Shown piece by piece: positions 10,420 through 54,307 of a stretch of DNA of 64,000 nt (the stretch's first letter is position 1; every line of letters starts with the position of its first letter). The position numbers and the translations under genes are program-made. The notes beneath the pieces are model-generated. The model searched no databases and was not told the origin of the DNA. It saw nothing but the letters and a program-made list of their open reading frames with translations. Source of the stretch: Haliotis rubra (Eukaryota); NCBI RefSeq assembly GCF_003918875.1, contig NW_025766975.1, positions 994,684 to 1,058,683 on the forward strand, given 5' to 3'.

Positions 10420-10545
10420 TCAAGCAGATGTCTGCCTATCTTGTTCCCTGCCTACAAGACCACCTGCTGTGTTGAACAGGTTGAGGGGATTCTTGGCATC
10501 AGTGAACAACACGCTCTGCATCCCGAGAGCCTGCAGCAAGCGGGC
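10420..10545 (-). CDS. MVP: MVP exon 25 (last coding exon, includes TGA stop at 10420-10422)
   Basis: acceptor tttgtttttcag|GCCCGC; encodes ARLLQALGMQSVLFTDAKNPLNLFNTAGGLVGREQDRQTSA*, cf. vertebrate MVP ...[32 protein letters not shown]. Confidence 0.8.
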   Translation of the reverse strand, partial: ARLLQALGMQSVLFTDAKNPLNLFNTAGGLVGREQDRQTSA

Positions 10546-10876
10546 CTGAAAAACAAAGGTAACATTGAAGTTGGTTGGCTGTCGTTTAACACCGCTGAAT
10601 GCAGTGTAAAACTAAACTCACTCACTCATTCGGCTGGAAACCATAGATCTACGAGTTGTTTTAGAAACCGGGAATCTATATTGCTCAGGAATGATCGATT
10701 TTTGTATTTTTCTGGTCACTGATCTTGACCTTGTTAATCTGGATGCCCTGCTCACATGATCAAAATATCGAGCTAAAGAGTCATGAGCTCAGTAAAGTAT
10801 TCACCCACATGAAACTGTTGCTGATGCTACAGAGACAAAAGATCCTATTTGCAAGGATTAACAATTTGTTTGTCTT

Positions 10877-10955
10877 ATTTAACACCATACTCAGCAATAT
10901 TCCAGCCATACAGTAATCTGAACCAGACAATCCAATGACTGACCCTCGATCTATG
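10877..10955 (-). mobile_element. SINE-B fragment
   Basis: CAGCAATATTCCAGCCATACAG...CAGACAATCCAATGA. Confidence 0.45.
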
Positions 10956-11089
10956 CGAATCCATGAAGCTTTTCCTCATTGACAAGGAGCACTGAAGTAC
11001 TTAATGGTGAACCAGTTCTCAATACTTTAAGATTGCTATGAATTGAAACAATAGGTGGCATACACATACTGAACGTTTTGTCCCATTCA

Positions 11090-11308
11090 AGCAGAATGAG
11101 CAATATTCCAGCTATAAGGAGACAGTCTGTAAAAATCAAGTCTGGACCTAGACAATCCAGTGATCAACAGCATGAGCATCGATCTACACAATTGGGATAC
11201 GATGACGTGTGTCAACCAAGTCACGAGTTTGACCACCCTATCCTGTAAGTCGCCTCTTACGACAAGCATGGGTTGCTGAAGATCAATTCTAAGGCGGATC
11301 TTCATGGG
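11090..11308 (-). mobile_element. SINE-B copy
   Basis: near full-length match to SINE-B consensus in reverse orientation. Confidence 0.7.
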
Positions 11309-11348
11309 TTCCTGTGGAGGAACTCCTACAGGGCACAGAATGTCTCAC

Positions 11349-11429
11349 CTGGGTATCTGGGCCAGCTTGGGCCATGGCTGCACATGTCTCTTGGCCAATA
11401 CTCTCAATCATCTCCTGGAATTTGTTCAC
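11349..11429 (-). CDS. MVP: MVP exon 24
   Basis: aatttcag|GTGAAC ... ACCCAG|gtgagaca; encodes VNKFQEMIESIGQETCAAMAQAGPDTQ (cf. [27 protein letters not shown]). Confidence 0.8.
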
Positions 11430-11889
11430 CTGAAATTAGACAGTAACTGTCAACATTTTCAATATCTTCCAATGAACAGTATGGTTTCTCCACAGCCTAA
11501 GACTATTACAGATATAAACTTATATACAGACTCTAAGATGTTATATTTTGTTGAAAATCTGTTTCCTTTGAATTCCTGTGTTGACAGAGCAGGCTACACA
11601 AGAGTTGCTTCCCTTTGGTCATGAGAATGAAGTATTATTTAGTAAAACCGTAATTGTCCATCTTAAAACAATGGCTCTATTGTAATTTCCCTTTATTTAC
11701 ATCTTCAATATTTGAAGGAGAGAATATTCCCCATTAAAACACAGATGTAACTGTTGTTAAATATGTGGAAAAGGATCTAGGAAATATAAAACACAGCTTG
11801 ATGGTTATGACCAAATCATATGGTGATGGAACGTCAGCAAATCAACCCTGCTTGAAACAGGATACAGTGCATATCTGGATTTTGCTCAC

Positions 11890-11970
11890 TTCAATCTCAG
11901 CCTTCCTTCTTTCTTTGTCCAGGTAGAGCTCGTTTTGACCTCGCAGGTAGTTGATCTCGCCCCTCTTCGC
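11890..11970 (-). CDS. MVP: MVP exon 23 (cap-helix)
   Basis: tgtgtgacag|GCGAAG ... ATTGAA|gtgagc; encodes AKRGEINYLRGQNELYLDKERRKAEIE (cf. [27 protein letters not shown]). Confidence 0.75.
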
Positions 11971-12160
11971 CTGTCACACAAGTCACAATACTCTCCTCAC
12001 ACTTAAAAACTCAAACTTTAACTATATGTTAGGGAGAAGGCCTAACAAAATAGATGTGTAAATGAATGCTTCTTAAGCAAAAATATTAAACAATCTATAT
12101 CAATGGAGCCTGTACATAATCAAATCTGGAAATCTGGTCTATGCAAACGAGTGATTGATG

Positions 12161-12311
12161 AGTGAGTGAGTAAGTATGGTTTTATGCCTCTTTTAGCAAT
12201 ATTCCAGCAACATCACGGAGGGGACACCAGAAATGGGCTTCACACATTGTATCCATGTCAGGAATGGAACCCGGCGTCTTGGGCATCACGAGTCAACGCT
12301 ACCCCACCGCC
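12161..12311 (-). mobile_element. SINE-A copy
   Basis: (GAGT)n...CCAGCAACATCACGGAGGGGACACCAGAAATGGGCTTCACACATTG... Confidence 0.75.
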
Positions 12312-12544
12312 AAATTGATAGGAGCAGAGTTGCCTCCTATTAGGGTATAATGACTTGCACTGGGCCTCACCAGCTTAGGTGTCTACTACAAGTCCCACTG
12401 TAAACCGATCGATATGGAGTTTCTTCTGCAGAAATTTAAGCTTGTATAATCTGAGTGATTTCTTGTAGTGTTCTCATACTTTAGTGAGAACAAGTGAGGA
12501 AATTCAGTTACTTAAGCTCTGTGGCAGTCAAGTATTGTATGATA

Positions 12545-13818
12545 TACTTACCAGGCAAGTACTACCCAAATAGTTACCATGATTTGTGGCAATCAAGAAT
12601 CAATATTTAGCATGTTATGTGACAGTCAGGTACCTATATTTACCATGCTCTGTGAAATGCTCAGTGACAGTATAACATCACAGTTAGCATGTTCTGTGAC
12701 AGTCAGGTACCTATATTTACCATGCTCTGTGAAATGCCCAGTGACAGTATAACATCACAGTTAGCATGTTATGTGATGGTCAGGTACCTATATTTACCAT
12801 GCTCTGTGAAATGCTCAGTGACAGTATAACATCACAGTTAGCATGTTCTGTGACAGTCAGGTACCTATATTTACCATGCTCTGTGAAATGCTCAGTGACA
12901 GTATAACATCACAGTTAGCATGTTATGTGACAGTCAGGTACCTATATTTACCATGCTCTGTGAAATGCTCAGTGACAGTATAACATCACAGTTAGCATGT
13001 TCTGTGACAGTCAGGTACCTATATTTACCATGCTCTGTGAAATGCCCAGTGACAGTATAACATCACAGTTAGCATGTTATGTGATGGTCAGGTACCTATA
13101 TTTACCATGCTCTGTGAAATGCTCAGTGACAGTATAACATCACAGTTAGCATGTTCTGTGACAGTCAGGTACCTATATTTACCATGCTCTGTGAAATGCT
13201 CAGTGACAGTATAACATCACAGTTAGCATGTTATGTGACAGTCAGGTACCTATATTTACCATGCTCTGTGAAATGCTCAGTGACAGTATAACATCACAGT
13301 TAGCATGTTATGTGACAGTCAGGTACCTATATTTACCATGCTCTGTGAAATGCTCAGTGACAGTATAACATCACAGTTAGCATGTTATGTGACAGTCAGG
13401 TACCTATATTTACCATGCTCTGTGAAATGCTCAGTGACAGTATAACATCACAGTTAGCATGTTCTGTGACAGTCAGGTACCTATATTTACCATGCTCTGT
13501 GAAATGCTCAGTGACAGTATAACATCACAGTTAGCATGTTATGTGACAGTCAGGTACCTATATTTACCATGCTCTGTGAAATGCTCAGTGACAGTATAAC
13601 ATCACAGTTAGCATGTTCTGTGACAGTCAGGTACCTATATTTACCATGCTCTGTGAAATGCTCAGTGACAGTATAACATCACAGTTAGCATGTTATGTGA
13701 CAGTCAGGTACCTATATTTACCATGCTCTGTGAAATGCTCAGTGACAGTATAACATCACTGTGATGGTCAGTCATCAATAGTAGCCATGTTTTGTGACAG
13801 TTAAGTATCTATATTTAC
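12545..13818. repeat. Satellite D: 77-bp unit x about 16, abutting the donor of MVP exon 22
   Basis: period 77 measured (12681 to 12758); minus-strand unit ...CAGAGCATG|GTAAATATAGGTACCTGACTGTCAC... matches exon 22 end ...CAGGGCATG|GTAAATATAGATACTTAACTGTCAC. Confidence 0.85.
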
Positions 13819-13883
13819 CATGCCCTGTGTCTCCAGTCTAGCTTGATGTTCTATTGCCTCTGCCTCTGCCTTCAGTTTTGCAG
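13819..13883 (-). CDS. MVP: MVP exon 22 (cap-helix)
   Basis: gggttttttccag|CTGCAAAACTG ... GGCATG|gtaaat; encodes (A)AKLKAEAEAIEHQARLETQGM (cf. LQAKLKAQALAIETEAELQRVQK). Confidence 0.75.
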
Positions 13884-14074
13884 CTGGAAAAAACCCACAA
13901 ATTGCAAGAAAGAATGATATGCATAAGGTCAGTGCCCGCTTCAGTCCTCCTCTCCTAATTGTAAGTCATTTATCATTCAAGTCCTCATTCATTCTATGGA
14001 AACCTCAAAACTAAGCCATAGGATTCTGAACACAGCAGAAATCTGATATGAGGGAAATGTTCACTGAGCACTGC

Positions 14075-17000
14075 CCTGAATGACTGTTTGACCAGAAAAC
14101 TTTCTTCCATAAAAATCCATCTGTATCACACACAGCTCACCTTCAATCTCACTCTGACACTCTATAAGCATCCTCTCTGCCTGGGCCTCTATCACACACA
14201 GCTCACCTTCAATCTCACTCTGACACTCTATAAGTATCCTCTCAGCCTGGGCCTGCATCACAGCTCACCTTCAATCTCACTCTGACACTCTATAAGCATC
14301 CTCTCTGCCTGGGCCTGCATCACAACTCACCTTCAATCTCACTCTGACGCTCTATAAGCATCCTCTCAGCCTGGGCCTGTATCACACACAACTCACCTTC
14401 AATCTCACTCTGACACTCTATAAGCATCCTCTCAGCCTGGGCCTGCATCACAGCTCACCTTCAATCTCACTCTGACGCTCTATAAGCATCCTCTCAGCCT
14501 GGGCCTGTATCACACACAACTCACCTTCAATCTCACTCTGGCACTCTATAAGCATCCTCTCAGCCTGGGCCTGTATCACACACAGCTCACCTTCAATCTC
14601 ACTCTGACGCTCTATAAGCATCCTCTCAGCCTGGGCCTGTATCACACACAACTCACCTTCAATCTCACTCTGACGCTCTATAAGCATCCTCTCAGCCTGG
14701 GCCTGTATCACAGCTCACCTTCAATCTCACTCTGACGCTCTATAAGTATCCTCTCAGCCTGGGCCTGCATCACAACTCACCTTCAATCTCACTCTGACGC
14801 TCTATAAGCATCCTCTCAGCCTGGGCCTGCATCACAGCTCACCTTCAATCTCACTCTGATGCTCTATAAGCATCCTCTCAGCCTGGGCCTGTATCGCACA
14901 CAGCTCACCTTCAATCTCACTCTGACGCTCTATAAGCATCCTCTCAGCCTGGGCCTGCATCACAGCTCACCTTCAATCTCACTCTGACACTCTATAAGCA
15001 TCCTCTCAGCCTGGGCCTGTATCACACACAGCTCACCTTTCAATCTCACTCTGGCTCTATATAAGCATCCTCTCAGCCTGGGCCTGCATCACAACTCACC
15101 TCTTCAATCTCACTCTGACACTCTATAAGCATCCTCTCAGCCTGGGCCTGTATCACACACACAACTCACCTTCAATCTCACTCTGCCAGCTCTATAAGTA
15201 TCCTCTCAGCCTGGGCCTGTATCACACACAGCTCACCTTCAATCTCACTCTGACACTCTATAAGTATCCTCTCAGCCTGGGCCTCTATCACACACAGCTC
15301 ACCTTCAATCTCACTCTGACACTCTATAAGTATCCTCTCAGCCTGGGCCTGTATCACACACAGCTCACCTTCAATCTCACTCTGACACTCTATAAGTATC
15401 CTCTCAGCCTGGGCCTCTATCACACACAGCTCACCTTCAATCTCACTCTGACACTCTATAAGTATCCTCTCAGCCTGGGCCTCCTATCACACACAGCTCA
15501 CCTTCAATCTCACTCTGACACTCTATAAGTATCCTCTCAGCCTGGGCCTGTATCACACACAGCTCACCTTCAATCTCACTCTGACACTCTATAAGTATCC
15601 TCTCAGCCTGGGCCTGTATCACACACAGCTCACCTTCAATCTCACTCTGACACTCTATAAGCATCCTCTCAGCCTGGGCCTGCATCACAACTCACCTTCA
15701 ATCTCTCACTCTGACACTCTATAAGCATCCCTCTCAGCCTGGGCCTGTATCACACACAACTCACCTTCAATCTCACTCTGACGCTCTATCAGTATCCTCT
15801 CAGCCTGGGCCTGTATCACACACAGCTCACCTTCAATCTCTCACTCTGACACTCTATAAGTATCCTCTCAGCCTGGGCCTGTATCACACACAGCTCACCT
15901 TCAATCTCACTCTGACACTCTATAAGCATCCTCTCAGCCTGGGCCTGTATCACACACAGCTCACCTTCAATCTCACTCTGACACTCTATAAGTATCCTCT
16001 CAGCCTGGGCCTGTATCACACACAGCTCACCTTCAATCTCACTCTGACACTCTATAAGCATCCTCTCAGCCTGGGCCTCTATCACACACAGCTCACCTTC
16101 CAATCTCACTCTGACACTCTATAAGCATCCTCTCAGCCTGGGCCTCAGCTATCACACACAGCTCACCTTCAATCTCACTCCTGACACTCCTATAGGTATC
16201 CTCTCAGCCTGGGCCTGTATCACACACAGCTCACCTTCAATCCCACTCTGGCACTCTATAAACATCCTCTCAGCCTGGGCCTGTATCACAGCTCACCTTC
16301 AATCTCACTCTGACGCTCTATAAGCATCCTCTCAGCCTGGGCCTGCATCACAACTCACCTTCAATCTCACTCTGACGCTCTATAAGCATCCTCTCAGCCT
16401 GGGCCTGTATCACAGCTCACCTTCAATCTCACTCTGACACTCTATAAGCATCCTCTCTGCCTGGGCCTCTATCACACACAGCTCACCTTCAATCTCACTC
16501 TGGCTGCATCCTCTATAAAGTATCCTCTCAGCCTGGGCCTGTATCACACACAGCTCACCTTCAATCTCACTCTGACACTCTCACACAAGCATCCTCTCTG
16601 CCTGGGCCCTCCTATCACATAATGTCAGCTCACCTTCAATCTCACTCTGACCTCTGTAAGCATCCTCTCTGCCTGGGCCTCTATCACACACGTCTCACCT
16701 TTCAATCTCACTCTGACCTCTATAAGTATCCTCTCAGCCTGGGCCTGTATCACACACAGCCTCACCTTCAATCCTCACTCTGATACTCTATAAGCATCCT
16801 CTCTGCCTGGGCCTCTATCACACACAGCTCACCTTCAATCTCCTCCTGACCTCTATAGGTATCCTCTCAGCCTGGGCCTCTATCACACACAGCTCACCTT
16901 CAATTCTCACTCTCAGCCTGGTCTGTATCCTGTGGCTCTCACTCTGACACTCTATAAGTATCCTCTCTGCCTGGGCCTGTATCACACACAGCTCACCTTC

Positions 17001-20000
17001 AATCTCACTCTGACACTCTATAAGTATCCTCTCGGCCTGGGCCTGTCACACACAGCTCACCTTCAGTCTCACTCTGACACTCTATAGACGTCCTCTCTGC
17101 CTGGGCCTCTATCACACAGCTCACCCTTCACTCTCACTCTGACACTCTCTATGGTATCCTCTCTGCCTGGGCTCTGTATCACACACAGCTCACCTTCAAT
17201 CTCACTCTGACACTCTCTATAGTATCCTCAGCCTGGGCCTGTGTCACAGCTCACCTTCAATCTCACTCTGACACTCCTTATAAGCATCCATCTCTGCCTG
17301 GGCCTCTATCACAGCTCACCTTCATACCATTTTCTCTGACCACTCTGCAATGTCCTCCTCTCAGCCTGAGCCTGTATCACTGGCTCACCTTCCAATCTCA
17401 CTCTGTCCTCTATAAGCATCCCTCTCTGCCTGGGCCTGCATCTAACTCACCTTCCAATCTCACTCTGACGCTCTATAAGCATCCTCTCAGCCTGGGCCTG
17501 TATCCAAAACTCACCTTCAATCTCACTCCTGACACTCTATAAGCATCCTCTCAGCCTGGGCCTGCATCACAGCTCACCTTCAATCTCACTCTGACTCTCT
17601 ATAAAGCATCCTCTCAGCCTGGGCCTGTATCACAGCTCACCTTCAATCTCACTCTGACACTCTATAAGCATCCTCTCTGCCTGGGCCTCTATCACACACA
17701 GCTCACCTTCAATCTCACTCTGGCACTCTATAAGTATCCTCTCAGCCTGGGCCTGTATCACACACAGCTCACCTTCAATGTCACTCTGACACTCTATAAG
17801 TATCCTCTCAGCCTGGGCCTGTATCACACACAGCTCACCTTCAATCTCACTCTGACACTCTATAAGCATCCTCTCAGCCTGGGACTGCATCACAACTCAC
17901 CTTCAATCACTCTGACAATCTATAAAAGCATCCTCTCAGCCTGGGCCTGTATCACAGCTCACCTTCAATCTCACTCTGACACTCTATAGAAGCATCCTCT
18001 CTGCCTGGGCCTCTATCACAGCTCACCTCCAATCTCACTCTGGCTCTATAAGTATGTCCTCTCTGCCTGGGCCTGTATCACAGCTCACCTTCAATCTCAC
18101 TCTGACACTCTATAAGCATCCTCTCTGCCTGGGCCTCTATCACACACAGCTCACCTTCAATCTCACTCTGACACTCTATAAGTATCCTCTCAGCCTGGGC
18201 CTGTATCACAGCTCACCTTCAATCTCACTCTGACTCTCTATAAGTATCCTCTCAGCCTGGGCCTGCATCACAACTCACCTTCAATCTCACTCTGACACTC
18301 TATAAGCATCCTTTCAGCCTGGGACTGCATCACAACTCACCTTCAATCTCTCACTCTCATGACACAGCTCTATAAGCATCCTCTCAGCCTGGGACTGCAT
18401 CACAGCTCACCTTCAATCCTCACTCTGACACTCTATAAGCATCCCTCTCACCTGGGCCTGTATGTCACACAGCTCACCTTCAATCTCACTCTGACACTCA
18501 ATAAGCATCCCCTCAGCCTGGGCCTGTATCACACACAACTCACCTTCAATCCCTCTCTAGGCTCTATAAGGATCCTCTCAGCCTGGGCCTGTATCACACA
18601 GCTCACCTTCAATCCCACTCTGACTCTATAAGCATCCTGGGCCTGGGCCTGTATCACACACAGCTCACCACCTTCAATCTCACTCTGACACTCTATAAGC
18701 ATCCTCTCAGCCTGGGCCTGTATCACACACAGCTCAGCTTCAATCTCCTCTCTGGCTCTATAAGCATCCTCTCAGCCTGGGCCTGTATCACAACTCACCT
18801 TCAATCTCACTCTGACACTCTATAAGCATCCTCTCAGCCTGGGCCTGTATCACAGCTCACCTTCAATCTCACTCTGACGCTCTATAAGCATCCTCTCAGC
18901 CTGGGCCTGTATCACAACTCACCTTCAATCTCACTCTGGCACTCTATAAGCATCCTCTCACCCTGGGCCTGTATCACACACAGCTCACCTTCAATCTCAC
19001 TCTGACACTCAATAAGCATCCCCTCAGCCTGGGCCTGTATCACACACAACTCACCTTCAATCCCACTCTGACACTCTATAAGGATCCTCTCAGCCTGGGC
19101 CTGTATCACACACAGCTCACCTTCAATCCCACTCTGACACTCTATAAGCATCCCCTCAGCCTGGGCCTGTATCACACACAACTCACCTTCAATCCACTCT
19201 GACACTCTATAAGCATCCTCTCAGCCTGGGCCTGTATCACACACAGCTCACCTTCAATCTCACTCTGACGCTCTATAAACATCCTCTCAGCCTGGGCCTG
19301 TATCACAGCTCACCTTCAATCTCACTCTGACGCTCTATAAGTATCCTCTCAGCCTGGGCCTGTATCACACACAGCCTCACAGCTCACCTTCACATCTCAC
19401 TCTGACTCTCTATAAGCATCCTCTCAGCCTGGGCCTGTATCACACACAACTCACCTTCAATCTCACTCTGGCACTCTATAAGTATCCTCTCAGCTGGGCC
19501 TGTGTCACACAACTCACCTTCAATCTCACTCTGACACTCTATAAGTATCCTCTCAGCCTGGGCCTGTATCACACACAGCTCACCTTCAATCTCACTCTGA
19601 CACTCTATCAGCATCCTCTCAGCCTGGGCCTGTGTCACACAGCTCACCTTCCATCCACTGACTGGCTCTATAAGCATCCTCTCAGCCTGGGCCTGTATCA
19701 CACACAGCTTACCTTCAATCTCACTCTGGCAGTCTATAAGTATCCTCTCAGCCTGGGCCTCTATCACCACACAGCTCACCTTCAATCTCACTCCTGGCAC
19801 TCTATAAGCATCCTCTCGGCCCTGGGCCTGTGTCACACACAACTCACCTTCAATCTCGCTCTGGCACTCTATAAGGTATCCTCTCAGCCTGGGCCTCCCT
19901 ATCACACACGCTCTTCACCGTCTCACTCTGACACTCTATAAGTATCCTCTCGGCCTGGGCCTGTATCACACACAGCTCACCTTCAATCTCACTCTGACAC

Positions 20001-20420
20001 TCTATAAGTATCCTCTCAGCCTGGGCCTGTATCACACAGCTCACCTTCAATCTCACTCTGACACTCTAAGCATCCTCTCAGCCTGGGCCTGTATCACACA
20101 CACAAGCTCACCTTCAATCTCACTCCTGGCGCTCTATAAGCATCCTCTCAGCCTGGGCCTGTATCACACACAGCTCACCTTCAATCTCACTCTGACACTC
20201 TATAAACATCCTCTCAGCCTGGGCCTGTATCACAGCTCACCTTCAATCCCACTCTGACACTCTATAAACATCCTCTCAGCCTGGGCCTGTATCACAGCTC
20301 ACCTTCAATCTCACTCTGACACTCTATAAGCATCCTCTCAGCCTGGGCCTGTATCACACACAGCTCACCTTCAATCTCACTCTGGCACTCTATAAGCATC
20401 CTCTCAGCCTGGGCCTGTGC
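14075..20420. repeat. Satellite C: 62/66-bp unit x about 95-100 (~6.3 kb), starting at the donor of MVP exon 21
   Basis: period 66 measured (14131 to 14197); 62-bp variants lack CACA; minus-strand unit ATACAGGCCCAGGCTGAGAGGATGCTTATAGAGTGTCAGAGTGAGATTGAAG|GTGAGCTGTGTGTG = last 47 nt of exon 21 + consensus donor + 19 nt intron; in-frame (22 aa QAQAERMLIECQSEIEGELCVI); degenerate or frameshifted in 16100-17600 and 19390-19900. Confidence 0.9.
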
Positions 20421-20595
20421 TTCAGCTTTGGCTTGCCCAGTTGACTCAACAGCTGCAGCTATAGCACACAGATGCAGCAAGTTGGCCCTCTCCTTCTCTG
20501 CATCCTTCTCATTGGCCAGCTTCTGTCTCTCCAGCTGACCGCGTGCAGCCTGCTCAATCTTGTCAGCCTCATGGGCTGCTGCATTCTCTATGGAC
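20369..20595 (-). CDS. MVP: MVP exon 21 (shoulder/cap-helix start)
   Basis: tactgtacag|GTCCATAGAG ... GATTGAAG|gtgagc; encodes (K)SIENAAAHEADKIEQAARGQLERQKLANEKDAEKERANLLHLCAIAAAVESTGQAKAEAQAQAERMLIECQSEIE (cf. ...[61 protein letters not shown]). Confidence 0.8.
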
Positions 20596-20784: not shown

Positions 20785-22880
20785 TAATTTTTGGAGTAAA
20801 ATTGATATTTTATACTTATCCTGACTCATGCTCTTTTTGCTTGTCTTCTTCTTCTTGCGAACATAGTGGAACACTTGTATCTCCCTAATTGAAGCTCCCT
20901 TCAATTTAAAATCACTAATTAGTATTCACCACGAGTTACCTCCTTTCCACAAGCGCGGGAACGAGGGCGCCACCTCTACCCATGTGCCTCACTCTCTCCT
21001 CATATACTGAGCCCAACATTTGAATTTACAGGAAATCCAAAGTGTTATTTGGGGAGGATGGGAGGGGCTGACCTCATGAGTCAGGATAAGTATAAAATAT
21101 CAATTTTACTCCAAAATTACATATTTTCCTTATCCTGACTCATGCTCTTGCTTGTAGCATCCTACGGACGGAGGTGGGAATATCTAATACTTTGGATTTT
21201 TAATAATTAGTGATTTGAACTGTGATGATTGTAATAACCCTATGGGAACTTCATAAAGGCACTGAACTGATGAATTCCTGCTGCTAACTTATCAGCTGCC
21301 ATATATGTTAAAAGGTTATTACCATGTACTTATTATGATAAAGTATATATAACATTAATACAATGCTTAAGACTAATAGACTTAAGCTTGTTAATATGCT
21401 AGTATAAACTCCTTAGAGTTTGTTAGCTAAAATACTTTAAGATATAACATAGTACTAAGCTTAAGATATGATTAAACTTAAGCTAATTATATAATAGCAA
21501 ACTCTTTAGAGTTTGTTAGCTAATCTACTTATATGATATAGATATAGTGCTGAGCTTAAGATATGAATAAGCTTTAGCTACCTATATATATAATAGCAAA
21601 ACTCTGTAGAGTTTGTTAGCTAATATATTTTTATAATATGAGTATAGTACTATGCTTAAGGTATAATTAGCTTAAGTTACCTATATAATAGTAAAACTCC
21701 GTAGAGTTTGTTAGCTTAATTAACTTAAGCTATGTATAAAATAGCCAAAAACTCTGTAGAGTTTGTTAGCTAATGCATTTATCATGTAACCATAGTATTA
21801 CTCTTAAGATATGAATAACTTAAGGTAAATATATATAATAACAAACTCTGTAGAGTTGTTAACTTATATATTGTATGATGTAATAATCATAGTACTGTGA
21901 TGATAAAAGGAACTTAAGTAAATTATATATAGCATGAAGCTATTTAGTATTGTTATAAGATAAGTAAAAATCTGTTAGATTGACTTATCTTCTAAGAGGA
22001 ACTGTCAGCTGTTGTGCGAGGACCATGGGATCGAATTGGTGTATACCTGAGACGTCCTCCTGGTGGTGATATCTCTCAGATAATGGTTTGCAACCACCAT
22101 ATCGATTTCCAGAAATAAACCCTCCATTATTTCAATCACATTTGTGTAGAACAATTGTAGAAGTTAGCGCTATAATATCATGAGTATTAAGCTCATGGAG
22201 GGTCGGAATAGGTCCATCCGCATATGCACGTAGTATGACAGTTCTGATCCAAATGGAGATATAGTACATGAGACTTCACTCTGCGTAAGTTGATGATAGA
22301 GGAAATAATCTGTTGCATTTTTCCTCCTGTTTGGTTTGGTGGAGATAAATTTACAGTGCTCTTGCTGGCCATCTTGATAGAATCATCGTGATCATGGGGT
22401 CCAAGTATGTCATCCAGGCGGTTGTTCATAAACCCGGATCAGCAGCAGCATAAAAACGCAATCTGTAATAGTACAGAATTTTCATCAACGAATCCACTGA
22501 AACAAACACGCGCCCCGTGAATAAACTGTAGAAAAAAACGAATTAAATATCAATATATAATCGCTTGAAGGATACTAGCTAAACCTCTATAGATGTCTAT
22601 ACGAGGTAACTAACTAAATATAATTCAAAGGATATAGTGTGTCGGAGACACAGGCGCTTCTCACGTCCAGCTCACTGGGCGAAGAAGGAGAGAGTGAGGC
22701 ACATGGGTAGAGGTGGCGCCCTCGTTCCCGCGCTTGTGGAAAGGAGGTAACTCGTGGTGAATACTAATTAGTGATTTTAAATTGAAGGGAGCTTCAATTA
22801 GGGAGATACAAGTGTTCCACTATGTTCGCAAGAAGAAGAAGACAAGCAAAAAGAGCATGAGTCAGGATAAGGAAAAATTA
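20785..22880. mobile_element. TE1: ~2.1-kb non-autonomous foldback-like DNA element with ~230-bp terminal inverted repeats
   Basis: 20812-21040 is the reverse complement of 22660-22880 (CTTATCCTGACTCATGCTCTTTTTGCTTGTC...GGCGCCACCTCTACCCATGTGCCTCACTCTCTCC); subterminal hairpin CATGAGTCAGGATAAG...CTTATCCTGACTCATG; internal ~60-bp tandem array 21340-21900; shared with TE2. Confidence 0.75.
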
Positions 22881-23084
22881 ACAGTATGTAGAGTAAAAAA
22901 CATGAGAATGATATCATTCCATATTCTGCAACACAAAATCATCAACAATCAGTGTTTTCAGTAGCAACTGAACCTCCAATGACAGATGTGGTGAGCAAGG
23001 ACCCACTACTGGAGAACAATGACACGCAATAGAGCGAGAAACTGAATGTTCAGTCACCTTGTATGACCAGAAATGTTTGATTTG

Positions 23085-23278
23085 CTTGTTTGTTGTTTAA
23101 CATTGCACTCAGCAATATTCCAGCTGTAAGGTGGATAATTAATAATCAGATCTGGACAAGACAATCCAGTGATCAACATCATGAGCATCGATCTAAGCAA
23201 TTGGGATACGATGACATATGCCAACCAAGTCAGCGAGTCTGATCACCATTCCTCGCCTCTTATGACAAGCATGGGTTG
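23085..23278 (-). mobile_element. SINE-B copy, directly abutted by a SINE-A
   Basis: SINE-B body ends at ...GACAAGCATGGGTTGA then SINE-A begins. Confidence 0.6.
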
Positions 23279-23467: not shown

Positions 23468-23568
23468 TTTGTAGCAATCTCTATGGCCATCTGTATTGAC
23501 TTGCTGAGGCTGTCCCTCATCTTCACGTCTGATGGCTCGATGCTCTGAACGTCGATACTGGTAATTAC
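23468..23568 (-). CDS. MVP: MVP exon 20
   Basis: atatcaccag|GTAATTACC ... ACAAA|gtttgt (weak donor); encodes [33 protein letters not shown](K) (cf. [33 protein letters not shown]). Confidence 0.65.
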
Positions 23569-23583
23569 CTGGTGATATAAAGG

Positions 23584-24904: not shown

Positions 24905-25050
24905 CAAGTTGTTTTCACTGAATCTGATGTGTGTCCTGAGCTGCTTGTTGACAGGGTTGATACCGAAAACGGCCGTTCGTATGATCTGCAGGGAGTGTCT
25001 GTGGAACTCATCAAAGGGAACCAGGGCAACAGCACCTCTGATCCGGCTTC
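24905..25050 (-). CDS. MVP: MVP exon 19
   Basis: ctttttccag|GAAGCC ... AACTTG|gtatgt; encodes (G)[48 protein letters not shown] (cf. [32 protein letters not shown]...FPQNGLV). Confidence 0.85.
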
Positions 25051-25412: not shown

Positions 25413-25491
25413 CAACTTGTCGACAGGCAAAGCCAATGAAGTCTGGTACAGCAAACATTTGCTTCAGACTTTCGTCATCTTTTCGATCGTA
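25413..25491 (-). CDS. MVP: MVP exon 18
   Basis: tttgctttcag|TACGAT ... CAAGTTG|gtaagt; encodes YDRKDDESLKQMFAVPDFIGFACRQV (cf. [27 protein letters not shown]). Confidence 0.85.
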
Positions 25492-38375: not shown

Positions 38376-38466
38376 CTTCTCTTCACAATCTCTACTTCAA
38401 TGGGTGGGATGTACTCCAGTGGTCCTCGGATCAGCCATAAATCACCTGGCTTTCTTTTTGGCTTTC
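38376..38466 (-). CDS. MVP: MVP exon 11
   Basis: ttttttacaacag|GAAAGCC ... AAGAGAAG|gtagggc; encodes (G)[29 protein letters not shown] (cf. [27 protein letters not shown]). Confidence 0.85.
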
Positions 38467-40434: not shown

Positions 40435-40536
40435 CTTTAAACATATCGTCAGTGAAGGCTCCCTTGGCCTGGAGGACAAGGCTCTCGTCAGCTGACAAGA
40501 CGTGGGTGTTCTGTATGCCATCCTCAAGCCTCTCGC
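40435..40536 (-). CDS. MVP: MVP exon 10
   Basis: ctatgtttag|GCGAGAGG ... TTTAAAG|gtatgc; encodes (G)ERLEDGIQNTHVLSADESLVLQAKGAFTDDMFK (cf. [36 protein letters not shown]). Confidence 0.8.
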
Positions 40537-41119: not shown

Positions 41120-41261
41120 CTGGGTGTAGGAAAAATGTACACAACCCTTTCTTCAGCACCCGCTTCCCAAGGCATGGCCTCTTGTCCTCGTCTACTGGGT
41201 CCAGGACAACACAGTACTGACCCTTGCTGACCACCTCCTTCTTCACCTGCTTGACAACCTC
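41120..41261 (-). CDS. MVP: MVP exon 9
   Basis: cctgctgcag|GAGGTT ... CACCCAG|gtaaac; encodes EVVKQVKKEVVSKGQYCVVLDPVDEDKRPCLGKRVLKKGLCTFFLHP (cf. [48 protein letters not shown]). Confidence 0.85.
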
Positions 41262-41497: not shown

Positions 41498-41519
41498 CCA
41501 CCAACACAGACTGCACCTA

Positions 41520-43274: not shown

Positions 43275-43341
43275 CACTCCAACTTCAGGAAAATAACTAT
43301 CAGTTTCTTCTCCAGTCAGCAGCCATTCTTCTCCAGCCAAC
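43275..43341 (-). CDS. MVP: MVP exon 8
   Basis: ttgttgcag|GTTGGC ... GGAGTG|gtaagt; encodes (R)LAGEEWLLTGEETDSYFPEVGV (cf. [24 protein letters not shown]). Confidence 0.85.
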
Positions 43342-44100: not shown

Positions 44101-44195
44101 CTGCTGTCACCATACGCATCAGTTAATGTCCGAGTGGCTCGAAGGTGCAGGCCAGCATCATGGGTCAAGGTTATCTTCGATTTCACATCGAGTAC
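44101..44195 (-). CDS. MVP: MVP exon 7
   Basis: cactgtag|GTACTC ... GACAGCAG|gtaaattg; encodes VLDVKSKITLTHDAGLHLRATRTLTDAYGDS (cf. [31 protein letters not shown]). Confidence 0.8.
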
Positions 44196-45233: not shown

Positions 45234-45303
45234 CTCTTCAAACACTCCTGGAACATAAGCCCCTGGTGTTGACACAAGCCATTCCTCGCCAGTCACACGA
45301 TCG
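45234..45303 (-). CDS. MVP: MVP exon 6
   Basis: tttttcag|CGATCG ... GAAGAG|gtgagac; encodes (N)[23 protein letters not shown] (cf. [23 protein letters not shown]). Confidence 0.9.
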
Positions 45304-46730: not shown

Positions 46731-46822
46731 TTTCCTTCGTTATCATAACAGTCCTGAATGGCCCGTAGATTGAGGGAATCTCCATTCCTGATGATGAACG
46801 GCTGCACAATCTTCACAACCTC
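46731..46822 (-). CDS. MVP: MVP exon 5
   Basis: tcctacag|GAGGTT ... GGAAA|gtaagg; encodes EVVKIVQPFIIRNGDSLNLRAIQDCYDNEG (cf. [30 protein letters not shown]). Confidence 0.85.
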
Positions 46823-47024: not shown

Positions 47025-49665
47025 CACCATTGCAGCTCTAGAAATGTGGTCTACTCGCCACATCAGCTCTAGCAATGTGGTCTACTCGCCACATCAGCTC
47101 TAGGAATGTGGCCTACTCAACACATCAGCTCTAGGAATGTAGGTTACTCAACACATAAGCTCTAGGAATGTAGGCAACTCGCCACATCAGCTCTAGGAAT
47201 GTGGTGTACTCAACAGCTCAGCTCTAGGAATTTGGTCTACTTGCCACATCAGCTCTAGGAATGTGGTCTCTCGCCACATCAGCTCAACACATAGGCTCTA
47301 GGAATGTGGTCTACTCGCCACATCAGCTCTAGGAATGTGGTCTACTCAACATATCAGCTCTAGGAATGTGGTCTACTCAACACATAGGCTCTAGGAATGT
47401 GGTCTACTCAACACATCAGCTCTAGGAATGTGGCCACATCAGCTCTAGGAATGTGGTCTACTCAACATATCAGCTCTAGGAATGTGGTCTACTCACCACA
47501 TCGGCTCTAGGAATGTGGTCTACTCAACACATCAGCTCTAGGGATGTAGCTTAGTCACCACATCAGCTCTAGGGATGTAGCCTACTCAGCTCTAGGAATG
47601 TAGGTTACTCACAACATCAGCTCTAGGAATGTGGCCTACTCACCACATCAGCTCTAGGGATGTAGGCTACTCACATCAGCTCTAGTAATGTGGGTTACTC
47701 ACCACATCAGCTCCAGGAATGTAGGCTACTCACCACATCATCTCTAGGAATGTAGGCTACTCACCACATTAGCTCCAGTGATGTAGGCTACTCACCACAT
47801 CATATCTCTAGGAATGTGGGTTACTCACCACATCAGCTCTAGGAATGTGGGTTACTCACCACATCAGCTGTAGGGATGTAGGTTACTCACCACGTCAGCT
47901 CTAGGAATGCAGGCTACTCACCACATCAGCTCTAGGCATGTAGGCTACTCACCACATCAGCTCTAGGGATGTAGGCTACTCACCACATCAGCTCTAGGAA
48001 TGTGGGTTACTCACCACATCAGCTCTAGGAATGTGGGTTACTCACCACATCAGCTCCAGGAATGTAGGCTACTCGACACATCAGCTGTAGGTATGAAGGT
48101 TACTCACCACATCAGCTCTAGGAATGTAGGCTACTCACCCACATCAGTTCTAGGAATGTAGGCTACTCACCACATCAGCTCTAGGAATGTGGGTTACTCA
48201 CCACATCAGCTGTAGGGATGTAGGTTACTCACCACATCAGCTCTAGGAATGCAGGCTACTCACCACATCATCTCTAGGCATGTAGGCTACTCACCACATC
48301 AGCTCTAGGGATGTAGGCTACTCACCACATCAGCTCTAGGAATTTGGGTTACTCACCACATCAGCTCTAGGAATGTGGGTTACTCACCACATCAGCTCCA
48401 GGAATGTAGGCTACTCGACACATCAGCTGTAGGGATGAAGGTTACTCACCACATCAGCTCTAGGGATGTAGGCTACTCACCACATCAGCTCTAGGAATGT
48501 AGGCTACTCACCACATCAGTTCTAGGAATGTGGTTTACTCACCACATCAGCTCTAGGAATGTGGTTTACTCACCACATCAGCTCTAGGAATGTGGGTTAC
48601 TCAACACATCAGCTCTAGGAATGTAGGCTACTCACCACATCAGCTCTAGGAATGTGGGTTACTCACCACATCAGCTCTAGGAATGTAGGCTACTCACCAC
48701 ATCAGTTCTAGGAATGTAGGCTAATCACCACATCAGCTCTAGGAATGTAGCCTACTCACCACATCAGCTCCAGGCTACTCACCACATCAGCTAGGAATGT
48801 AGGCTACTCATCACATCAGCTCTAGGAATGTAGGCTACTCACCACATCAGCTCTAGGAATGTAGGCTACTCACCACATCAGCTCTAGGGATGTAGGCTAC
48901 TCAACACATCAGCTCTAGGAATGTAGGCTACTCACCACATCAGCTCTAGGAATGTAGGCTACTCACTACGTCAGGTCTAGGAATGTGGGTTTCTCACCAC
49001 ATCATCTCTAGGAATGTAGGCTACTCACCACATCAGCTCTAGGAATGTAGCCTACTCACCACATCAGCTCTAGAAATGTAGGCTACTCATCACATCAGCT
49101 CTAGGAATGTAGGCTACTCACCACATCAGCTCTAGGAATGTAGGCTACTCACCACATCAGCTCTAGGGATGTAGGCTACTCACCACATCAGCTCTAGGAA
49201 TGTAGGCTACTCACCACATCAGCTCTAGGAATGTAGGCTACTCACCACATCAGCTCTAGGGATGTAGGCTACTCACCACATCAGCTCTAGGGATGTAGGC
49301 TACTCACCACATCAGCTCTAGGAATGCAGGCTACTCACCACATCAGCTCTAGGGATGCAGGCTACTCCCCACATCAGCTCTAGGTATGTAGGCTACTCAC
49401 CACATCAGCTCTAGGAATGTGGGTTTCTCACGTCAGCTCTAGGGATGTAGGCTACTCACCACATCAGCTGTAAGGATGTAGGCTACTCACCACGTCAGCT
49501 CTAGGGATGTAGCCTACTCAACACATCAGTTCTAGGAATGTAGCCTACCCCAATCAGCTCTAGGAATGTAGGCTCATCACCACGTCAGCTCTAGGGATGT
49601 AGGCTCATCACCACATCAGCTCTAGGGATGTAGGCTACTCACCACATCAGCTCTAGGGATGTAGG
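47025..49665. repeat. Satellite B: 31-bp unit x about 85 (~2.6 kb), starting at the donor of MVP exon 4
   Basis: period 31 measured (48841 to 48872); minus-strand unit CCTACATYCCTAGAGCTGATGTG|GTGAGTAG = last 23 nt of exon 4 (..YIPRADV) + GTGAGTAG donor. Confidence 0.9.
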
Positions 49666-49867
49666 TCAGTGGTCCAGGCAGCTGCCACATCTCCTCTTCC
49701 TTCCTCTTCACCCCAGAGTCCTCCAGGTCAAAGAGGGCACGGAGGCGGATTGCATGGTTGGCATTGATAACAGGGAGGGGACGGACAGCCTTCTGGTACT
49801 GACCTCTCTGCTGGACGTATTCTGGGGCCAGCGTGAGTGATTCTCCTGGGTAGAGAGGGAATGGGTC
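49643..49867 (-). CDS. MVP: MVP exon 4 (vault repeat)
   Basis: ttcttccttgcag|GACCCA ... GATGTG|gtgagtag; encodes [75 protein letters not shown] (cf. [63 protein letters not shown]). Confidence 0.9.
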
Positions 49868-50803: not shown

Positions 50804-50867
50804 CTGATGAAGTCTTACTTCCTTGTGTCCAAGTTTGAGCTCACATGCCTTGCCTGCCTCATAGTGG
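50804..50867 (-). CDS. MVP: MVP exon 3
   Basis: gtttctcttctag|CCACTAT ... CATCAG|gtaggt; encodes (S)HYEAGKACELKLGHKEVRLHQ (cf. [29 protein letters not shown]). Confidence 0.75.
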
Positions 50868-51040
50868 CTAGAAGAGAAACAGCAAAGCATTAAACAAAAC
50901 CCATCTTCATCAACACCTAGAAATATGCTTGTGTATAGCCAGGTCAAAAGCAATGGCTCAGAGATTGTGATTAGTCTTGCTAGATTACCTACCAGACTTG
51001 ATGCAAACATTTAGTAGGAGTACATATATTGGGAGATCAA

Positions 51041-53265
51041 CACCTGTTAGGTGACCGAGATGACCTCACCTCATGGGGTCTGTGATGATGTTATGGTGAC
51101 CGAGATGACCTCACCTCATGGGGTCTGTGATGATGTTATGGTGACCAAGACTACCTCACCTGATGGGGTCTGTGATGGTGTTATGGTGACTGAGATTACC
51201 TCACCTGATGGGGTCTGTGATGGTGTTATCGTGGCTGAGATGACCTCACCTGATGGGGTCTGTGACACTGTTATCGTGACTGAGATGACCTCACCTGATT
51301 GGGTCTGTGATGCTGTTATGTTGACCGAGATGACCTCACCTGATGGGGTCTGTGATGCTGTTATGGTGACCGAGATGACCTCACCTGATGGGGTCTGTGA
51401 TGGTGTTATGGTGACCGAGATTACCTCACCTGATGGGGTCTGTGATGCTGTTAGGGTGACCGAGATGACCTCACCTCATGGGGTCTGTGATGCTGTTATC
51501 GTGACTGAGATGACCTCACCTGATGGGGTCTGTGATGTGTAATCATGACCGAGATGACCTCACCTGATGGGGTCTGTGACGGTGTTATCGTGACTGAGAT
51601 GACCTCACCTGATGGGGTCTGTGATGCTGTTATGGTGACCGAGATGACCTCACCTGATGGGGTCTGTGATGCTGTTGAAGTGACTGAGATGACCTCACCT
51701 GATGGGGTCTGTGATGCTGTTATTGTGACTGAGATGACCTCACCTGATGGGGTCTGTGATGCTGATGAAGTGATCTGAGATGACCTCACCTGATGGGGTC
51801 TGTGATGCTATTATAGTGACTGAGATGACCTCATCTGATGGGGTCTGTGTGATGCTGTTATCGTGGACCAAGATTACCCTCACCTGATGGGGTCTGTGAT
51901 GCTGTACCTATCGGACTGAGATGACCTCACCTGATGGGGTCTGTGATGTATTATCATGACTGAGATGACCTCACCTGATGGGGTCTGTGATGCTATTATG
52001 ATCGTGACTGACCTCACCTGATGGGGTCTGTGATGCTGTTATGGTGACTGAGATGACCTCACCTGATGGGGTCTGTGACACTGATGAAGTGATCAAGATG
52101 ACCTCACCTGATGGGGTCTGTGATGATGTTATGGTGACCGAGATGACCTCACCTGATGGGGTCTGTGATGATGTTATGGTGACTGAGATGACCTCACCTG
52201 ATGGGGTCTGTAATGCTGTTATCATGACCAAGATGACCTCACCTGATGGGGTCTGTGATGCTGTTATGGTGACTGAGATGACCTCACCTGATGGGGTCTG
52301 TGATGCTGTTATCGTGACTGAGATGACCTCACCTGATGGGGTCTGTGATGCTGTTATCGTGACCAAGATGACCTCACCTGATGGGGTCTGTGATGCTGTT
52401 ATCATGACCAAGATGACCTCACCTGATGGGGTCTGTAATGCTGTTATCGTGACTGAGATGACCTCACCTCATGGGGTCTGTAATGCTGGTGACTACCTTA
52501 TGCTATTATGGTGACTGAGATGACCTCACCTGATGGGGTCTGTGATGCTGTTATCGTGACCGAGATGACCTCACCTGATGGGGTCTGTGATGCTATTATG
52601 GTGACTGAGATGACCTCACCTCATGGGGTCTGTGATGCTGTTATCGTGACCAAGATGACCTCACCTGATGGGGTCTGTGATGCTGTTATGGTGACTGAGA
52701 TGACCTCACCTGATGGGGTCTGTGATGATGTTATGGTGACCGAGATGACCTCACCTGATGGGGTCTGTGATGATGTTATGGTGACCGAGATTACCTCACC
52801 TGATGGGGTCTGTGATGCTATTATGGTGACCGAGATTACCTCACATGATGGGGTCTGTGATGGTGTTATGGTGACCGAGATGACCTCACCTGATGGGGTC
52901 TGTGATGCTGTTATCGTGACTGAGATGACCTCACCTGATGGGGTCTGTGATGATGTTATGGTGACCGAGATGACCTCACCTGATGGGGTCTGTGATGATG
53001 TTATGGTGACCGAGATTACCTCACCTGATGGGGTCTGTGATGCTGTTATGGTGACCGAGATGACCTCACCTGATGGGGTCTGTGATGATGTTATGGTGAC
53101 CGAGATGACCTCACCTGATGGGGTCTGTGATGATGTTATGGTGACCGAGATTACCTCACCTGATGGGGTCTGTGATGCTATTATGGTGACCGAGATTACC
53201 TCACATGATGGGGTCTGTGATGCTGTTATCGTGACCAAGATGACCTCACCTGATGGGGTCTGTGA
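51041..53265. repeat. Satellite A: 45-bp unit x about 49 (~2.2 kb), starting at the donor of MVP exon 2
   Basis: period 45 measured (52741 to 52786); minus-strand unit TCACAGACCCCATCAG|GTGAGGTCATCTCGGTCACCATAACAKCA = last 16 nt of exon 2 (..VTDPI) + CAG|GTGAGG donor + 29 nt intron; irregular segment 51780-52040. Confidence 0.9.
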
Positions 53266-53383
53266 CACTGATGTAGTGACCAGGAGGGACAACGATCATA
53301 GGTAAAGGTCCAGCCTCAAGACGTTCATTACTCTTCAGGACGAGGGTCTGTGGCCCGACCTCTAGCCGTGTGATGTTCGTTGT
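53250..53383 (-). CDS. MVP: MVP exon 2
   Basis: cctgtgttgcag|ACAACG ... CCCATCAG|gtgagg; encodes TTNITRLEVGPQTLVLKSNERLEAGPLPMIVVPPGHYISVTDPI (cf. [44 protein letters not shown]). Confidence 0.85.
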
Positions 53384-53581
53384 CTGCAACACAGGACACG
53401 ACCAGTATGTATTTGTCATATCAAACATAAAACTAACTTGATCATCTCGCAATGGTTTGACAAATAGAGACATATCAAGTAGCATCCTGAGTTTCAGGAA
53501 TATCACATCAAATCACAAAGGTCATACTTGGATTATAAGCAAATATGTAAGGGTTATCAAGTTTGCAAGAAAAAGCTAAAG

Positions 53582-53990
53582 ACTCAGGGGTTCAAATGTT
53601 TTTTTAAAAGCCACTTGCCACAGGGCAAGTGACTTTAAGAAAGTAACTTGTCCTGGCTAATTTTCCACTTGCCATGATTTTTATGACATAATCGTCATGA
53701 TGTAATTATGAAAGAATAAATCAACATGGCATTTGATGTTAATGTCCACTGGACTATTTGAGAAGTGATAAATGGCACAGAAGAATAACTCTACTTAATT
53801 ATCATTGCAAAATTTAATAGCTACATTTTGAGCAGATATGAAATGAAATCCAAGCTTATTTGCAGTTTGAAACCGAAAGCAGAGATTATCTAGTAGCCCA
53901 CGGACAAGTAAGATACCATTATTTGATTGCCCGAAATGAAAACTGACTTGTCCCGGGCGTCGGGCTATGGGAGTTTTGAACCCCTGCAGA
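53582..53990. mobile_element. MITE (~410 bp) in MVP intron 1
   Basis: TIRs CTCAGGGGTTCAAATG / GTTTTGAACCCCTGCAG; internal GGGCTAGC/CCCGGGCGTCGGGCT-type motifs. Confidence 0.55.
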
Positions 53991-54238
53991 CGCATGGTAA
54001 AACTTAGCCGAGAGCCGCGATGCGGTCAACATTTTTTATGCGGGATTTATAACGATTACATTACACTTGTGTAGTAGAAACATATACATAATTCGAAACA
54101 GGTCAGCAGGCTTGCAGATCATGGTCAAATTTGTAACGTGCTGGTTGATTGCTCATGACCTAGTGAATTGAGCGATCGACAAAGACCCGTCCGAGGTGAC
54201 GGGCACCTGTCAATAACTGGACCTGTCAAATAGCTCAC

Positions 54239-54307
54239 CAGATCCAATACGTGGACGTATTGGTAGGGCATCAACCCAATAATGGACCCTTCCTTGTTGT
54301 GATTCAT
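54239..54307 (-). CDS. MVP: MVP exon 1 (coding part; ATG at 54305-54307)
   Basis: first ATG downstream of an in-frame TAG; encodes MNHNKEGSIIGLMPYQYVHVLDL then GATCTG|gtgagc donor (cf. [21 protein letters not shown]); the ORF-track GTG start at 54328 is not an ATG. Confidence 0.75.

Follow-up and report, generated by a model that had tools for sequence, protein, structure and literature searches.

Minisatellites that span exon-intron boundaries form a described class of repeats. In the human F7 gene, the first monomer of the 37-bp variable number of tandem repeats of intron 7 spans the exon-intron boundary, and the most upstream donor is selected in such arrays, as has been shown experimentally for F7 (Borensztajn et al., 2006; PMC1557585). 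Further boundary-spanning cases have been reported for intron 2 of IFI6/6-16, intervening sequence (IVS) 13 of CBS, LMNB2, and intron 4 of PDGF (PMC1557585). In amphioxus, tandem duplications of exon-intron boundaries, termed 'mirages', occur in Adh3 and in the globin genes BflGb6 and BflGb9, and concerted evolution by itself is expected to keep the repeat units highly identical (PMC3087553). Here we report on a gene of the major vault protein (MVP) family in which four 5' splice sites are tandemly amplified; it resides in a 64,000-nt stretch of the genome of the blacklip abalone Haliotis rubra (NCBI RefSeq assembly GCF_003918875.1, contig NW_025766975.1, positions 994,684 to 1,058,683 of the forward strand), hereafter called the window. 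Taking all evidence together, we consider it highly probable that this locus is an intact and functional MVP-family gene with 26 coding exons and a product of 861 amino acids, that it represents a divergent paralogue, and that it tolerates its donor-spanning arrays.

As in F7, an authentic 5' splice site is followed in each of the abalone arrays by many identical intronic pseudo-sites. The abalone gene differs in that it possesses four such arrays with 15-81 copies (5-25 in F7-type repeats), that each unit contains 11-48 nt of exon sequence (4 nt in F7), and that arrays are kept or arise anew at the same junctions in different species. The amphioxus mirages resemble the abalone arrays in being minisatellite-like boundary duplications in an invertebrate, with variable unit length, concerted evolution, and apparently harmless consequences for splicing. 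However, they affect both 5' and 3' boundaries and comprise 3-6 copies in the globin genes, whereas in the abalone MVP gene only donors are targeted and up to about 96 units are found. Judged by their organization, the abalone arrays belong to the known class represented by the mirages and by F7 IVS7, of which they are unusually dense members.

The MVP-like coding blocks are colinear on the minus strand, running from 54307 to 10420. They were located by tblastn with a first probe, a human MVP sequence that was later swapped for database sequences, and then with the best database homologue. The A of the ATG initiation codon is at 54307, this being the first in-frame ATG past a stop codon at 54352, and the TGA stop codon occupies 10422-10420. 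For each pair of neighbouring blocks, all frame-keeping GT or GC donors and AG acceptors were enumerated, and the joined peptides were scored against the H. asinina protein P0001 by semi-global junction scoring. The assembled model comprises 26 coding exons with a 2586-nt coding sequence, an uninterrupted open reading frame (ORF) of 861 codons for amino acids, and canonical GT-AG boundaries in 25 of 25 introns; the gene extends over 43,888 nt, with introns rich in repeats. The exons are given below; here and in the following, a slash marks the exon-intron boundary.

Exon 1, 54239..54307, minus strand: residues 1-23; ATG at 54307; donor GTGAGCTA
Exon 2, 53250..53383, minus strand: residues 24-68; donor CAG/GTGAGGTC; final ~18 nt form the first unit of a 45-bp array
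Exon 3, 50804..50867, minus strand: residues 68-89
Exon 4, 49643..49867, minus strand: residues 90-164; donor GTG/GTGAGTAG; final ~21-23 nt form the first unit of a 31-bp array
Exon 5, 46731..46822, minus strand: residues 165-195
Exon 6, 45234..45303, minus strand: residues 195-218
Exon 7, 44101..44195, minus strand: residues 219-250
Exon 8, 43275..43341, minus strand: residues 250-272
Exon 9, 41120..41261, minus strand: residues 273-320
Exon 10, 40435..40536, minus strand: residues 320-354
Exon 11, 38376..38466, minus strand: residues 354-384; one decayed unit copy at the intron start, the unit being amplified in H. rufescens and H. cracherodii
Exon 12, 37496..37556, minus strand: residues 384-404
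Exon 13, 36778..36872, minus strand: residues 405-436
Exon 14, 35871..35949, minus strand: residues 436-462
Exon 15, 28650..28706, minus strand: residues 463-481
Exon 16, 28110..28206, minus strand: residues 482-514
Exon 17, 26489..26568, minus strand: residues 514-540
Exon 18, 25657..25716, minus strand: residues 541-560
Exon 19, 25413..25491, minus strand: residues 561-587
Exon 20, 24905..25050, minus strand: residues 587-635
Exon 21, 23468..23568, minus strand: residues 636-669; weak donor AAA/GTTTGT, GTTTGT being conserved in four abalone species
Exon 22, 20369..20595, minus strand: residues 669-745, cap-helix region; donor AAG/GTGAGCTG; final ~46-48 nt form the first unit of a 66-bp array
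Exon 23, 13819..13883, minus strand: residues 745-766; donor ATG/GTAAATAT; final ~11 nt recur in a 77-bp array
Exon 24, 11890..11970, minus strand: residues 767-793
Exon 25, 11349..11429, minus strand: residues 794-820
Exon 26, 10420..10545, minus strand: residues 821-861 and the TGA stop codon (10422-10420)

An initial concatenation of 758 amino acids was discarded; it was only 79% identical to its best match and contained intron read-through. The semi-global scoring favoured an end of exon 22 at 20303, the second donor copy, but this candidate was rejected in favour of 20369, because only the latter matches the orthologue and the RefSeq protein without gaps. An exact-sequence look-up identified the translation of the final model as RefSeq XP_046574866.1, major vault protein-like [Haliotis rubra]. 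The gene is already annotated; the NCBI annotation gives the same protein.

A database search with the discarded 758-residue concatenation retrieved 2286 proteins at E <= 1e-10, with the H. asinina major vault protein-like protein as the best match; the best 120 of these 2286 matches all carry MVP Pfam domains and are all MVP where they are named. The final H. rubra protein and its H. asinina orthologue are identical at 827 of 861 positions (96%) and align without a single gap. Pfam recognizes Vault (176.3 bits, cut-off 27) in four stretches, Vault_2 (76.1 bits, cut-off 23.6), Vault_3 (127.9 bits, cut-off 28.8), Vault_4 (39.4 bits, cut-off 22.9) and MVP_shoulder (154.1 bits, cut-off 25), the latter at residues 531-649 and covering profile positions 1-118 of 118. 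In a phmmer search against the PDB, residues 7-856 align with residues 5-854 of human MVP in one continuous alignment (E = 9.3e-252), and rat MVP is matched with E ~1e-242. The cap-helix/cap-ring region is colinear with that of solved MVP, the aligned part including human residues 647-854, and the PDB chain 9z5n_B, a C-terminal MVP fragment, matches residues 754-858. Hence, the vertebrate proteins (rat and human MVP; 4V60, 4HL8, 2QZV, 7PKZ, 11DR) and the abalone protein share the domain order, all MVP Pfam domains, and end-to-end alignment; they are, however, only ~48% identical and belong to different paralogue lineages, and the abalone gene has 26 coding exons. Judging from these similarities, the gene is a true member of the MVP family with the full architecture of vault repeats, shoulder, cap-helix and C-terminal cap region, and by homology its product should assemble into the barrel-shaped shell (78-mer) of the vault.

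Orthologous loci of three further abalones were compared, namely those of H. asinina (L001; XP_067656927.1), H. rufescens (L002; XP_048249354.1) and H. cracherodii (L003; XP_071089644.1). All 26 exons could be mapped in H. asinina and exons 2-26 in H. rufescens and H. cracherodii, in whose loci blastn gave no match to exon 1; the mapped exon positions are the same, and all mapped splice boundaries are AG/GT in the three species. The H. asinina exons mapped in this way translate exactly into the RefSeq protein of that species, and the orthologues of H. rufescens and H. cracherodii are ~90% identical to the H. rubra protein. Between H. rubra and H. asinina, the ratio of nonsynonymous to synonymous substitutions (dN/dS) is 0.063 at a dS of 0.32, a value that argues for a functional gene; by this measure, the locus is intact and under strong purifying selection and is not a pseudogene. 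The H. asinina gene measures 22.5 kb and that of H. rubra 43.9 kb, the latter being longer because of its intronic arrays and transposons.

Abalones possess a second MVP gene, represented by protein P0096 and located at positions 3001-16813 of locus L004; it is 13.8 kb long and has fewer and larger exons. Against the solved rat and human MVP chains, the P0096-type paralogue scores 1228-1238 bits, while the protein encoded in the window scores 808-841 bits; their identities to human MVP are ~65% and ~48%, respectively. The human MVP sequence used for these identities and for the tree agrees with the PDB alignment. In a neighbor-joining tree of 42 sequences, which is rough, distance-based and midpoint-rooted and whose sampling is biased toward matches of the window protein, human MVP falls among lophotrochozoan 'copy 2' proteins, while the window gene joins a group formed by 'copy 1' proteins (molluscs, an annelid and a brachiopod) and by sequences of echinoderm, hemichordate, cnidarian and sponge origin. 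Both lineages are present in molluscs, a brachiopod and an annelid. On the basis of these comparisons, the window gene has diverged further than the other abalone MVP paralogue. Arrays near the 5' ends of introns are found in the P0096-type gene as well (L004); their units lack donor sequence, and they were not counted as mirages.

Four donor junctions of the window gene, those of exons 2, 4, 22 and 23, are tandemly amplified, each within its own intron. Each junction was represented by a 20-mer probe consisting of the last 12 exon and the first 8 intron bases, and up to three mismatches were allowed. Extra copies of the exon-2 (48), exon-4 (76), exon-22 (79) and exon-23 (15) donor probes were found exclusively in the intron concerned and on the coding strand. 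With these probes, neither the remaining 21 donor junctions nor, within their own introns, the 25 acceptor junctions gave any repeat; apart from exons 5 and 9, which matched each other, acceptor probes had no extra matches. Tandem Repeats Finder (TRF) reported head-to-tail arrays with periods of 45, 31, 66 and 77, copy numbers of 49, 78, 96 and 15, and 85-97% matches. Three of the arrays begin, according to TRF, 15-49 nt inside the exon; in the exon-23 array, the junction copies start at the donor itself and the TRF start lies 60 nt downstream. The arrays are as follows.

Intron 2 array, 51044..53265, minus strand: 45-bp unit (135-bp higher order); 48 pseudo-donors, 47 with GT and 40 with the authentic 9-mer CAG/GTGAGG
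Intron 4 array, 47033..49665, minus strand: 31-bp unit; 78 pseudo-donors, 57 with GT
Intron 22 array, 14121..20418, minus strand: 66-bp unit (62-68), ~96 units by TRF; 81 pseudo-donors, 80 with GT; specific to H. rubra
Intron 23 array, 12607..13818, minus strand: 77-bp unit; 15 pseudo-donors, all identical to ATG/GTAAAT

Each unit contains exon sequence, ~18 nt in the exon-2, ~21-23 nt in the exon-4, ~46-48 nt in the exon-22 and ~11 nt in the exon-23 array, along with the first 8-20 nt of the intron. In total, there are 222 pseudo-donors, ~200 of which retain GT and 161 the authentic 9-mer, and the four arrays take up 12,276 nt and thereby 28% of the gene. The gene has six large arrays, of which four start between -70 and +60 nt from a donor, an arrangement that has a probability of P = 4e-4 under random placement.

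The consequences for the reading frame were modelled for the first seven pseudo-donors of each array. Use of any of these in the exon-2, exon-4 or exon-23 array would lead to a stop at codon 69, 171 or 772, respectively. In the exon-22 array, pseudo-donor 1 at 20303 (+66 nt from the donor at 20368/20369) is in frame and would add 22 amino acids (GELCVIQAQAERMLIECQSEIE) to the cap-helix region, while pseudo-donors 2-7 would lead to a stop at codon 770. The protein cluster has five members, and no isoform carrying the insert GELCVIQAQAERMLIECQSEIE is one of them. The conservation of the pseudo-donor GT was compared with that of the rest of the unit, using units anchored away from the junction; the conservation string of the exon-22 array was read by eye, the motif search having landed on an internal GTGAG. 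GT is clearly better conserved in the exon-2 array (0.958 versus 0.720, in 24 units only) and worse in the exon-4 array (0.825 versus 0.886), and this anchored-unit test provided no consistent signal of selection on the pseudo-donor GT.

The copy number of these arrays is unstable between the four abalone species. The following numbers are copies detected with the junction probes unless TRF is stated.

Exon 2 junction (period 45): H. rubra 48; H. asinina ~24 degenerate units (TRF); H. rufescens 32; H. cracherodii 28
Exon 4 junction (period 31): H. rubra 76; H. asinina 6; H. rufescens 13; H. cracherodii 3
Exon 11 junction (period 34): H. rubra 0; H. asinina 0; H. rufescens 24; H. cracherodii 44
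Exon 22 junction (period 66): H. rubra 79; H. asinina 0; H. rufescens 0; H. cracherodii 0
Exon 23 junction: H. rubra 15 (period 77); H. asinina 0; H. rufescens 82 (period 33); H. cracherodii 28 (period 33)

These arrays, and one in Gigantopelta aegis, are positioned as follows.

H. asinina: L001 11180-12254, 13045-13341
H. rufescens: L002 9140-10649, 12460-13060, 22358-23257, 38833-41666
H. cracherodii: L003 8596-10059, 12400-12664, 21376-23375, 42450-43581
Gigantopelta aegis: L005 44879-46405

Tandemly amplified acceptor junctions were found in none of the four abalones. Single decayed remnants of the exon-11 unit are present in H. rubra and H. asinina. The exon-22 unit consists of exon positions -46 to -1 and intron positions +1 to +20 and is bracketed by ACAG microhomology; past the last unit of this array, the H. 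rubra intron is orthologous to the 240-nt intron 22 of H. asinina from position +21 onward. Gigantopelta aegis has independently amplified the junction orthologous to that of exon 22, to 21 copies, and shows a single duplication of one other junction. The MVP genes of Patella and Ostrea contain two-copy duplications of donor-side junctions, and each also has arrays that end at acceptors; one acceptor duplication is present in the Ostrea gene. No junction duplications were found in the MVP gene of Littorina.

Two further observations concern individual junctions. The authentic exon-2 donor of H. asinina (L001 11200) has changed to CAG/GTCAGT, while the array copies keep CAG/GTGAGG, presumably the ancestral and stronger donor; the first CAG/GTGAGG copy lies 46 nt downstream of the exon-2 donor and is out of frame. 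A degenerate array rich in GATG/GTTG is present in the same intron in three abalones (window positions 41678-42210 in intron 8; L002 19212-20269; L003 18195-18448). It faintly resembles the end of exon 8, GAAGTTGGAGTG/GTAAG, and might represent a boundary array that is old and decayed; in view of the weak resemblance, compared by eye, and the too low complexity, we did not call it as an exon-8 boundary array.

We propose that each of the four arrays would have been born by tandem duplication of the 3' end of an exon together with its 5' splice site, the duplicated unit being bracketed by ACAG microhomology in the case of exon 22, and would then have grown by slippage or unequal exchange. The arrays may be tolerated for two reasons: the spliceosome would take the most upstream donor, as it does in human F7, and nearly any downstream donor copy would introduce a premature stop codon. 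That the authentic upstream donor is chosen in H. rubra we infer by analogy, and such a choice fits the agreement of the first-donor model with the RefSeq protein and the orthologues, as well as the premature stops that all but one of the modelled downstream copies would give. Array neutrality is assumed here. Since there is no consistent extra conservation of GT and the arrays vary freely between species, the most economical reading is that they are tolerated by-products that evolve in concert.

Several points weigh against parts of this overall picture. The exon junctions were derived from homology, from canonical signals and from the match to a RefSeq protein that is itself predicted; the model covers the coding exons; and vault formation by this paralogue is a prediction from homology. 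Moreover, the exon-2 and exon-4 arrays persist in all four abalones, and the exon-22 junction was amplified independently in Gigantopelta, observations that could mean a mutational hotspot or a function. Arrays of U1 small nuclear ribonucleoprotein sites might, for example, support the definition of the exon upstream of them or keep premature cleavage within long introns in check; the arrays might also be a source of in-frame repeat isoforms. These two observations, the ~200 of 222 pseudo-donors that keep GT and the 161 that keep the authentic 9-mer, the in-frame position of the first exon-22 pseudo-donor, and the clearly better conserved GT of the exon-2 array, limited as that value is to 24 units, would all suit such a role. 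Yet GT is not consistently better kept, being worse in the exon-4 array, and high unit identity is predicted by concerted evolution alone (PMC3087553). Copy number, period and presence of the arrays vary freely (79 versus 0 copies for exon 22; periods of 77 versus 33 for exon 23), many fewer copies are enough for the H. asinina gene, and the decayed exon-11 remnants show that arrays can be lost, so that we rate a functional role of the arrays as improbable. A similarly low probability is given to the proposal that the abalone MVP-like gene is a hotspot in which 5' splice site minisatellites arise repeatedly and persist at the same donors over a dS of ~0.3 or more. Its basis is the involvement of five junctions across four Haliotis species, the renewed amplification of the exon-22 junction in Gigantopelta, and the fact that Haliotis acceptors are never amplified. 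If it were true, it would point to mutation by a mechanism linked to the 5' splice site or to the end of the exon, or to selected U1-binding pseudo-donor arrays, rather than to plain neutral tolerance.

The presence of 222 pseudo-donors beside the authentic donors, a weak donor (GTTTGT), and a second, better-conserved paralogue in the genus might also be expected of a decaying or non-functional MVP copy, in which the donor arrays would be a symptom of relaxed constraint. With an uninterrupted ORF, canonical splice sites throughout, a dN/dS of 0.063, an exon structure kept across four abalones and Gigantopelta, and conservation of the weak donor itself, we regard this as very improbable. Direct orthology of the gene with vertebrate MVP, which would make it 'the' abalone MVP, draws on its full domain set, its colinearity with the human and rat proteins, and its match to vertebrate MVP in an earlier, sequence-only reading of the window. 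The other paralogue is, however, far closer in both bit score and identity, and the rough tree places human MVP with the 'copy 2' proteins; the window gene is neither the gene most similar to vertebrate MVP in the genome nor one that groups with it, as would be expected of the orthologue, and we consider direct orthology unlikely. The sequence-only reading had also placed a complete gene of the MVP family at 10420 to 54307 of the minus strand. Both of these end coordinates are exact, its AG/GT boundaries at each exon and its colinearity with vertebrate MVP were borne out (residues 7-856 against human residues 5-854), and the expected top database match to MVP was indeed obtained, all top matches being MVP. 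Its model of 25 exons and 843 amino acids, correct in start, stop and block order, is nevertheless one exon and 18 residues short; the gapless orthologue alignment and the identity with the RefSeq protein need 26 exons and 861 amino acids, and the exon positions of the 26-exon model are conserved with AG/GT boundaries in three further species, which leaves almost no room for the shorter model as written. The weak donor that it placed at exon 20 fits that of exon 21 in the 26-exon numbering (AAA/GTTTGT), which suggests that the missed exon lies upstream of the exon-21 donor. The regions of exons 14 and 3, suspected to be short, have nothing missing in the complete model relative to the abalone orthologues. 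Repeat-filled introns do account for a span of ~44 kb, as had been supposed, but the four arrays that copy the gene's own exon ends and donors had been overlooked.

We thus retain the reading of an intact, divergent MVP paralogue with tolerated donor-spanning arrays. The rest of the extra length of its gene derives mostly from a 6.2-kb element with terminal inverted repeats (TIRs), a 2.1-kb copy of it, and two families resembling short interspersed nuclear elements (SINEs). These and the other features of the window are listed below.

29189..35397, unstranded: 6.2-kb TIR element; TIRs of ~190-200 nt, arms 98% identical; makes up most of the 7.2-kb intron 14; 95-bp satellite at 29791-31145
20803..22883, unstranded: 2.1-kb copy of the 6.2-kb TIR element in intron 21; TIR arms of ~190-200 nt, 98% identical; 95-bp satellite at 21406-21931
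56878-57357, plus strand, and 61250-61654, minus strand: N-terminal fragments of Tc1/mariner-type transposases upstream of the gene; HTH_Tnp_Tc3_2 40.9 bits, HTH_29 and HTH_32 weak
2860-3762, minus strand: ORF of 300 amino acids without Pfam match
3945-4201, 5738-5940, 11099-11309, 23074-23278, 28791-29025, 37011-37263, 58854-59107, 60636-60877: dispersed short repeat of ~220 nt
2144-2317, 2403-2572, 8527-8698, 23583-23750, 26251-26430, 41335-41506: dispersed short repeat of ~170 nt
38606-39152: tandem array of 151 bp x 3.6 in intron 10, unrelated to splice junctions
6236-6361: tandem array of 30 bp x 4.2 downstream of the gene, unrelated to splice junctions

The 6.2-kb element has a GC-rich core (~32-35.4 kb) in which no ORF is recognizable by Pfam, and Pfam searches of ten ORFs from the flanks and from intron 14 yielded nothing beyond the Tc1/mariner helix-turn-helix fragments. 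By eye, the ORF at 2860-3762 looks like the C-terminal part of the reverse transcriptase of a long interspersed nuclear element. The members of the two short-repeat families are 75-88% identical and occur in both orientations; the families are probably SINE-like or resemble miniature inverted-repeat transposable elements, and ARAGORN detected no tRNA in them. Rfam and tRNA scans of the window were empty. Together with the Pfam results, they are consistent with the view of the sequence-only reading that no other protein-coding gene is evident in the window; we detected no other cellular gene, small-exon genes in the flanks not being exhaustively excluded. In the three other abalones, the recorded gene calls contain no neighbouring gene within 5-10 kb of the orthologue.

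The gene itself is nothing new, as it is already part of RefSeq; what the analysis adds is mainly a correction of the hand-built model and a clearer assignment of the gene to the divergent paralogue lineage. The donor-spanning minisatellites are a modest side observation of a known kind. Nonetheless, a single gene that naturally contains four arrays with 15-81 nearly identical 5' splice sites each, and whose orthologues have other copy numbers or none, offers a comparative system for the way in which the spliceosome chooses the first among many identical donors, and for the birth (with the exon-22 array traceable to ACAG microhomology), homogenization and loss of boundary-spanning minisatellites.

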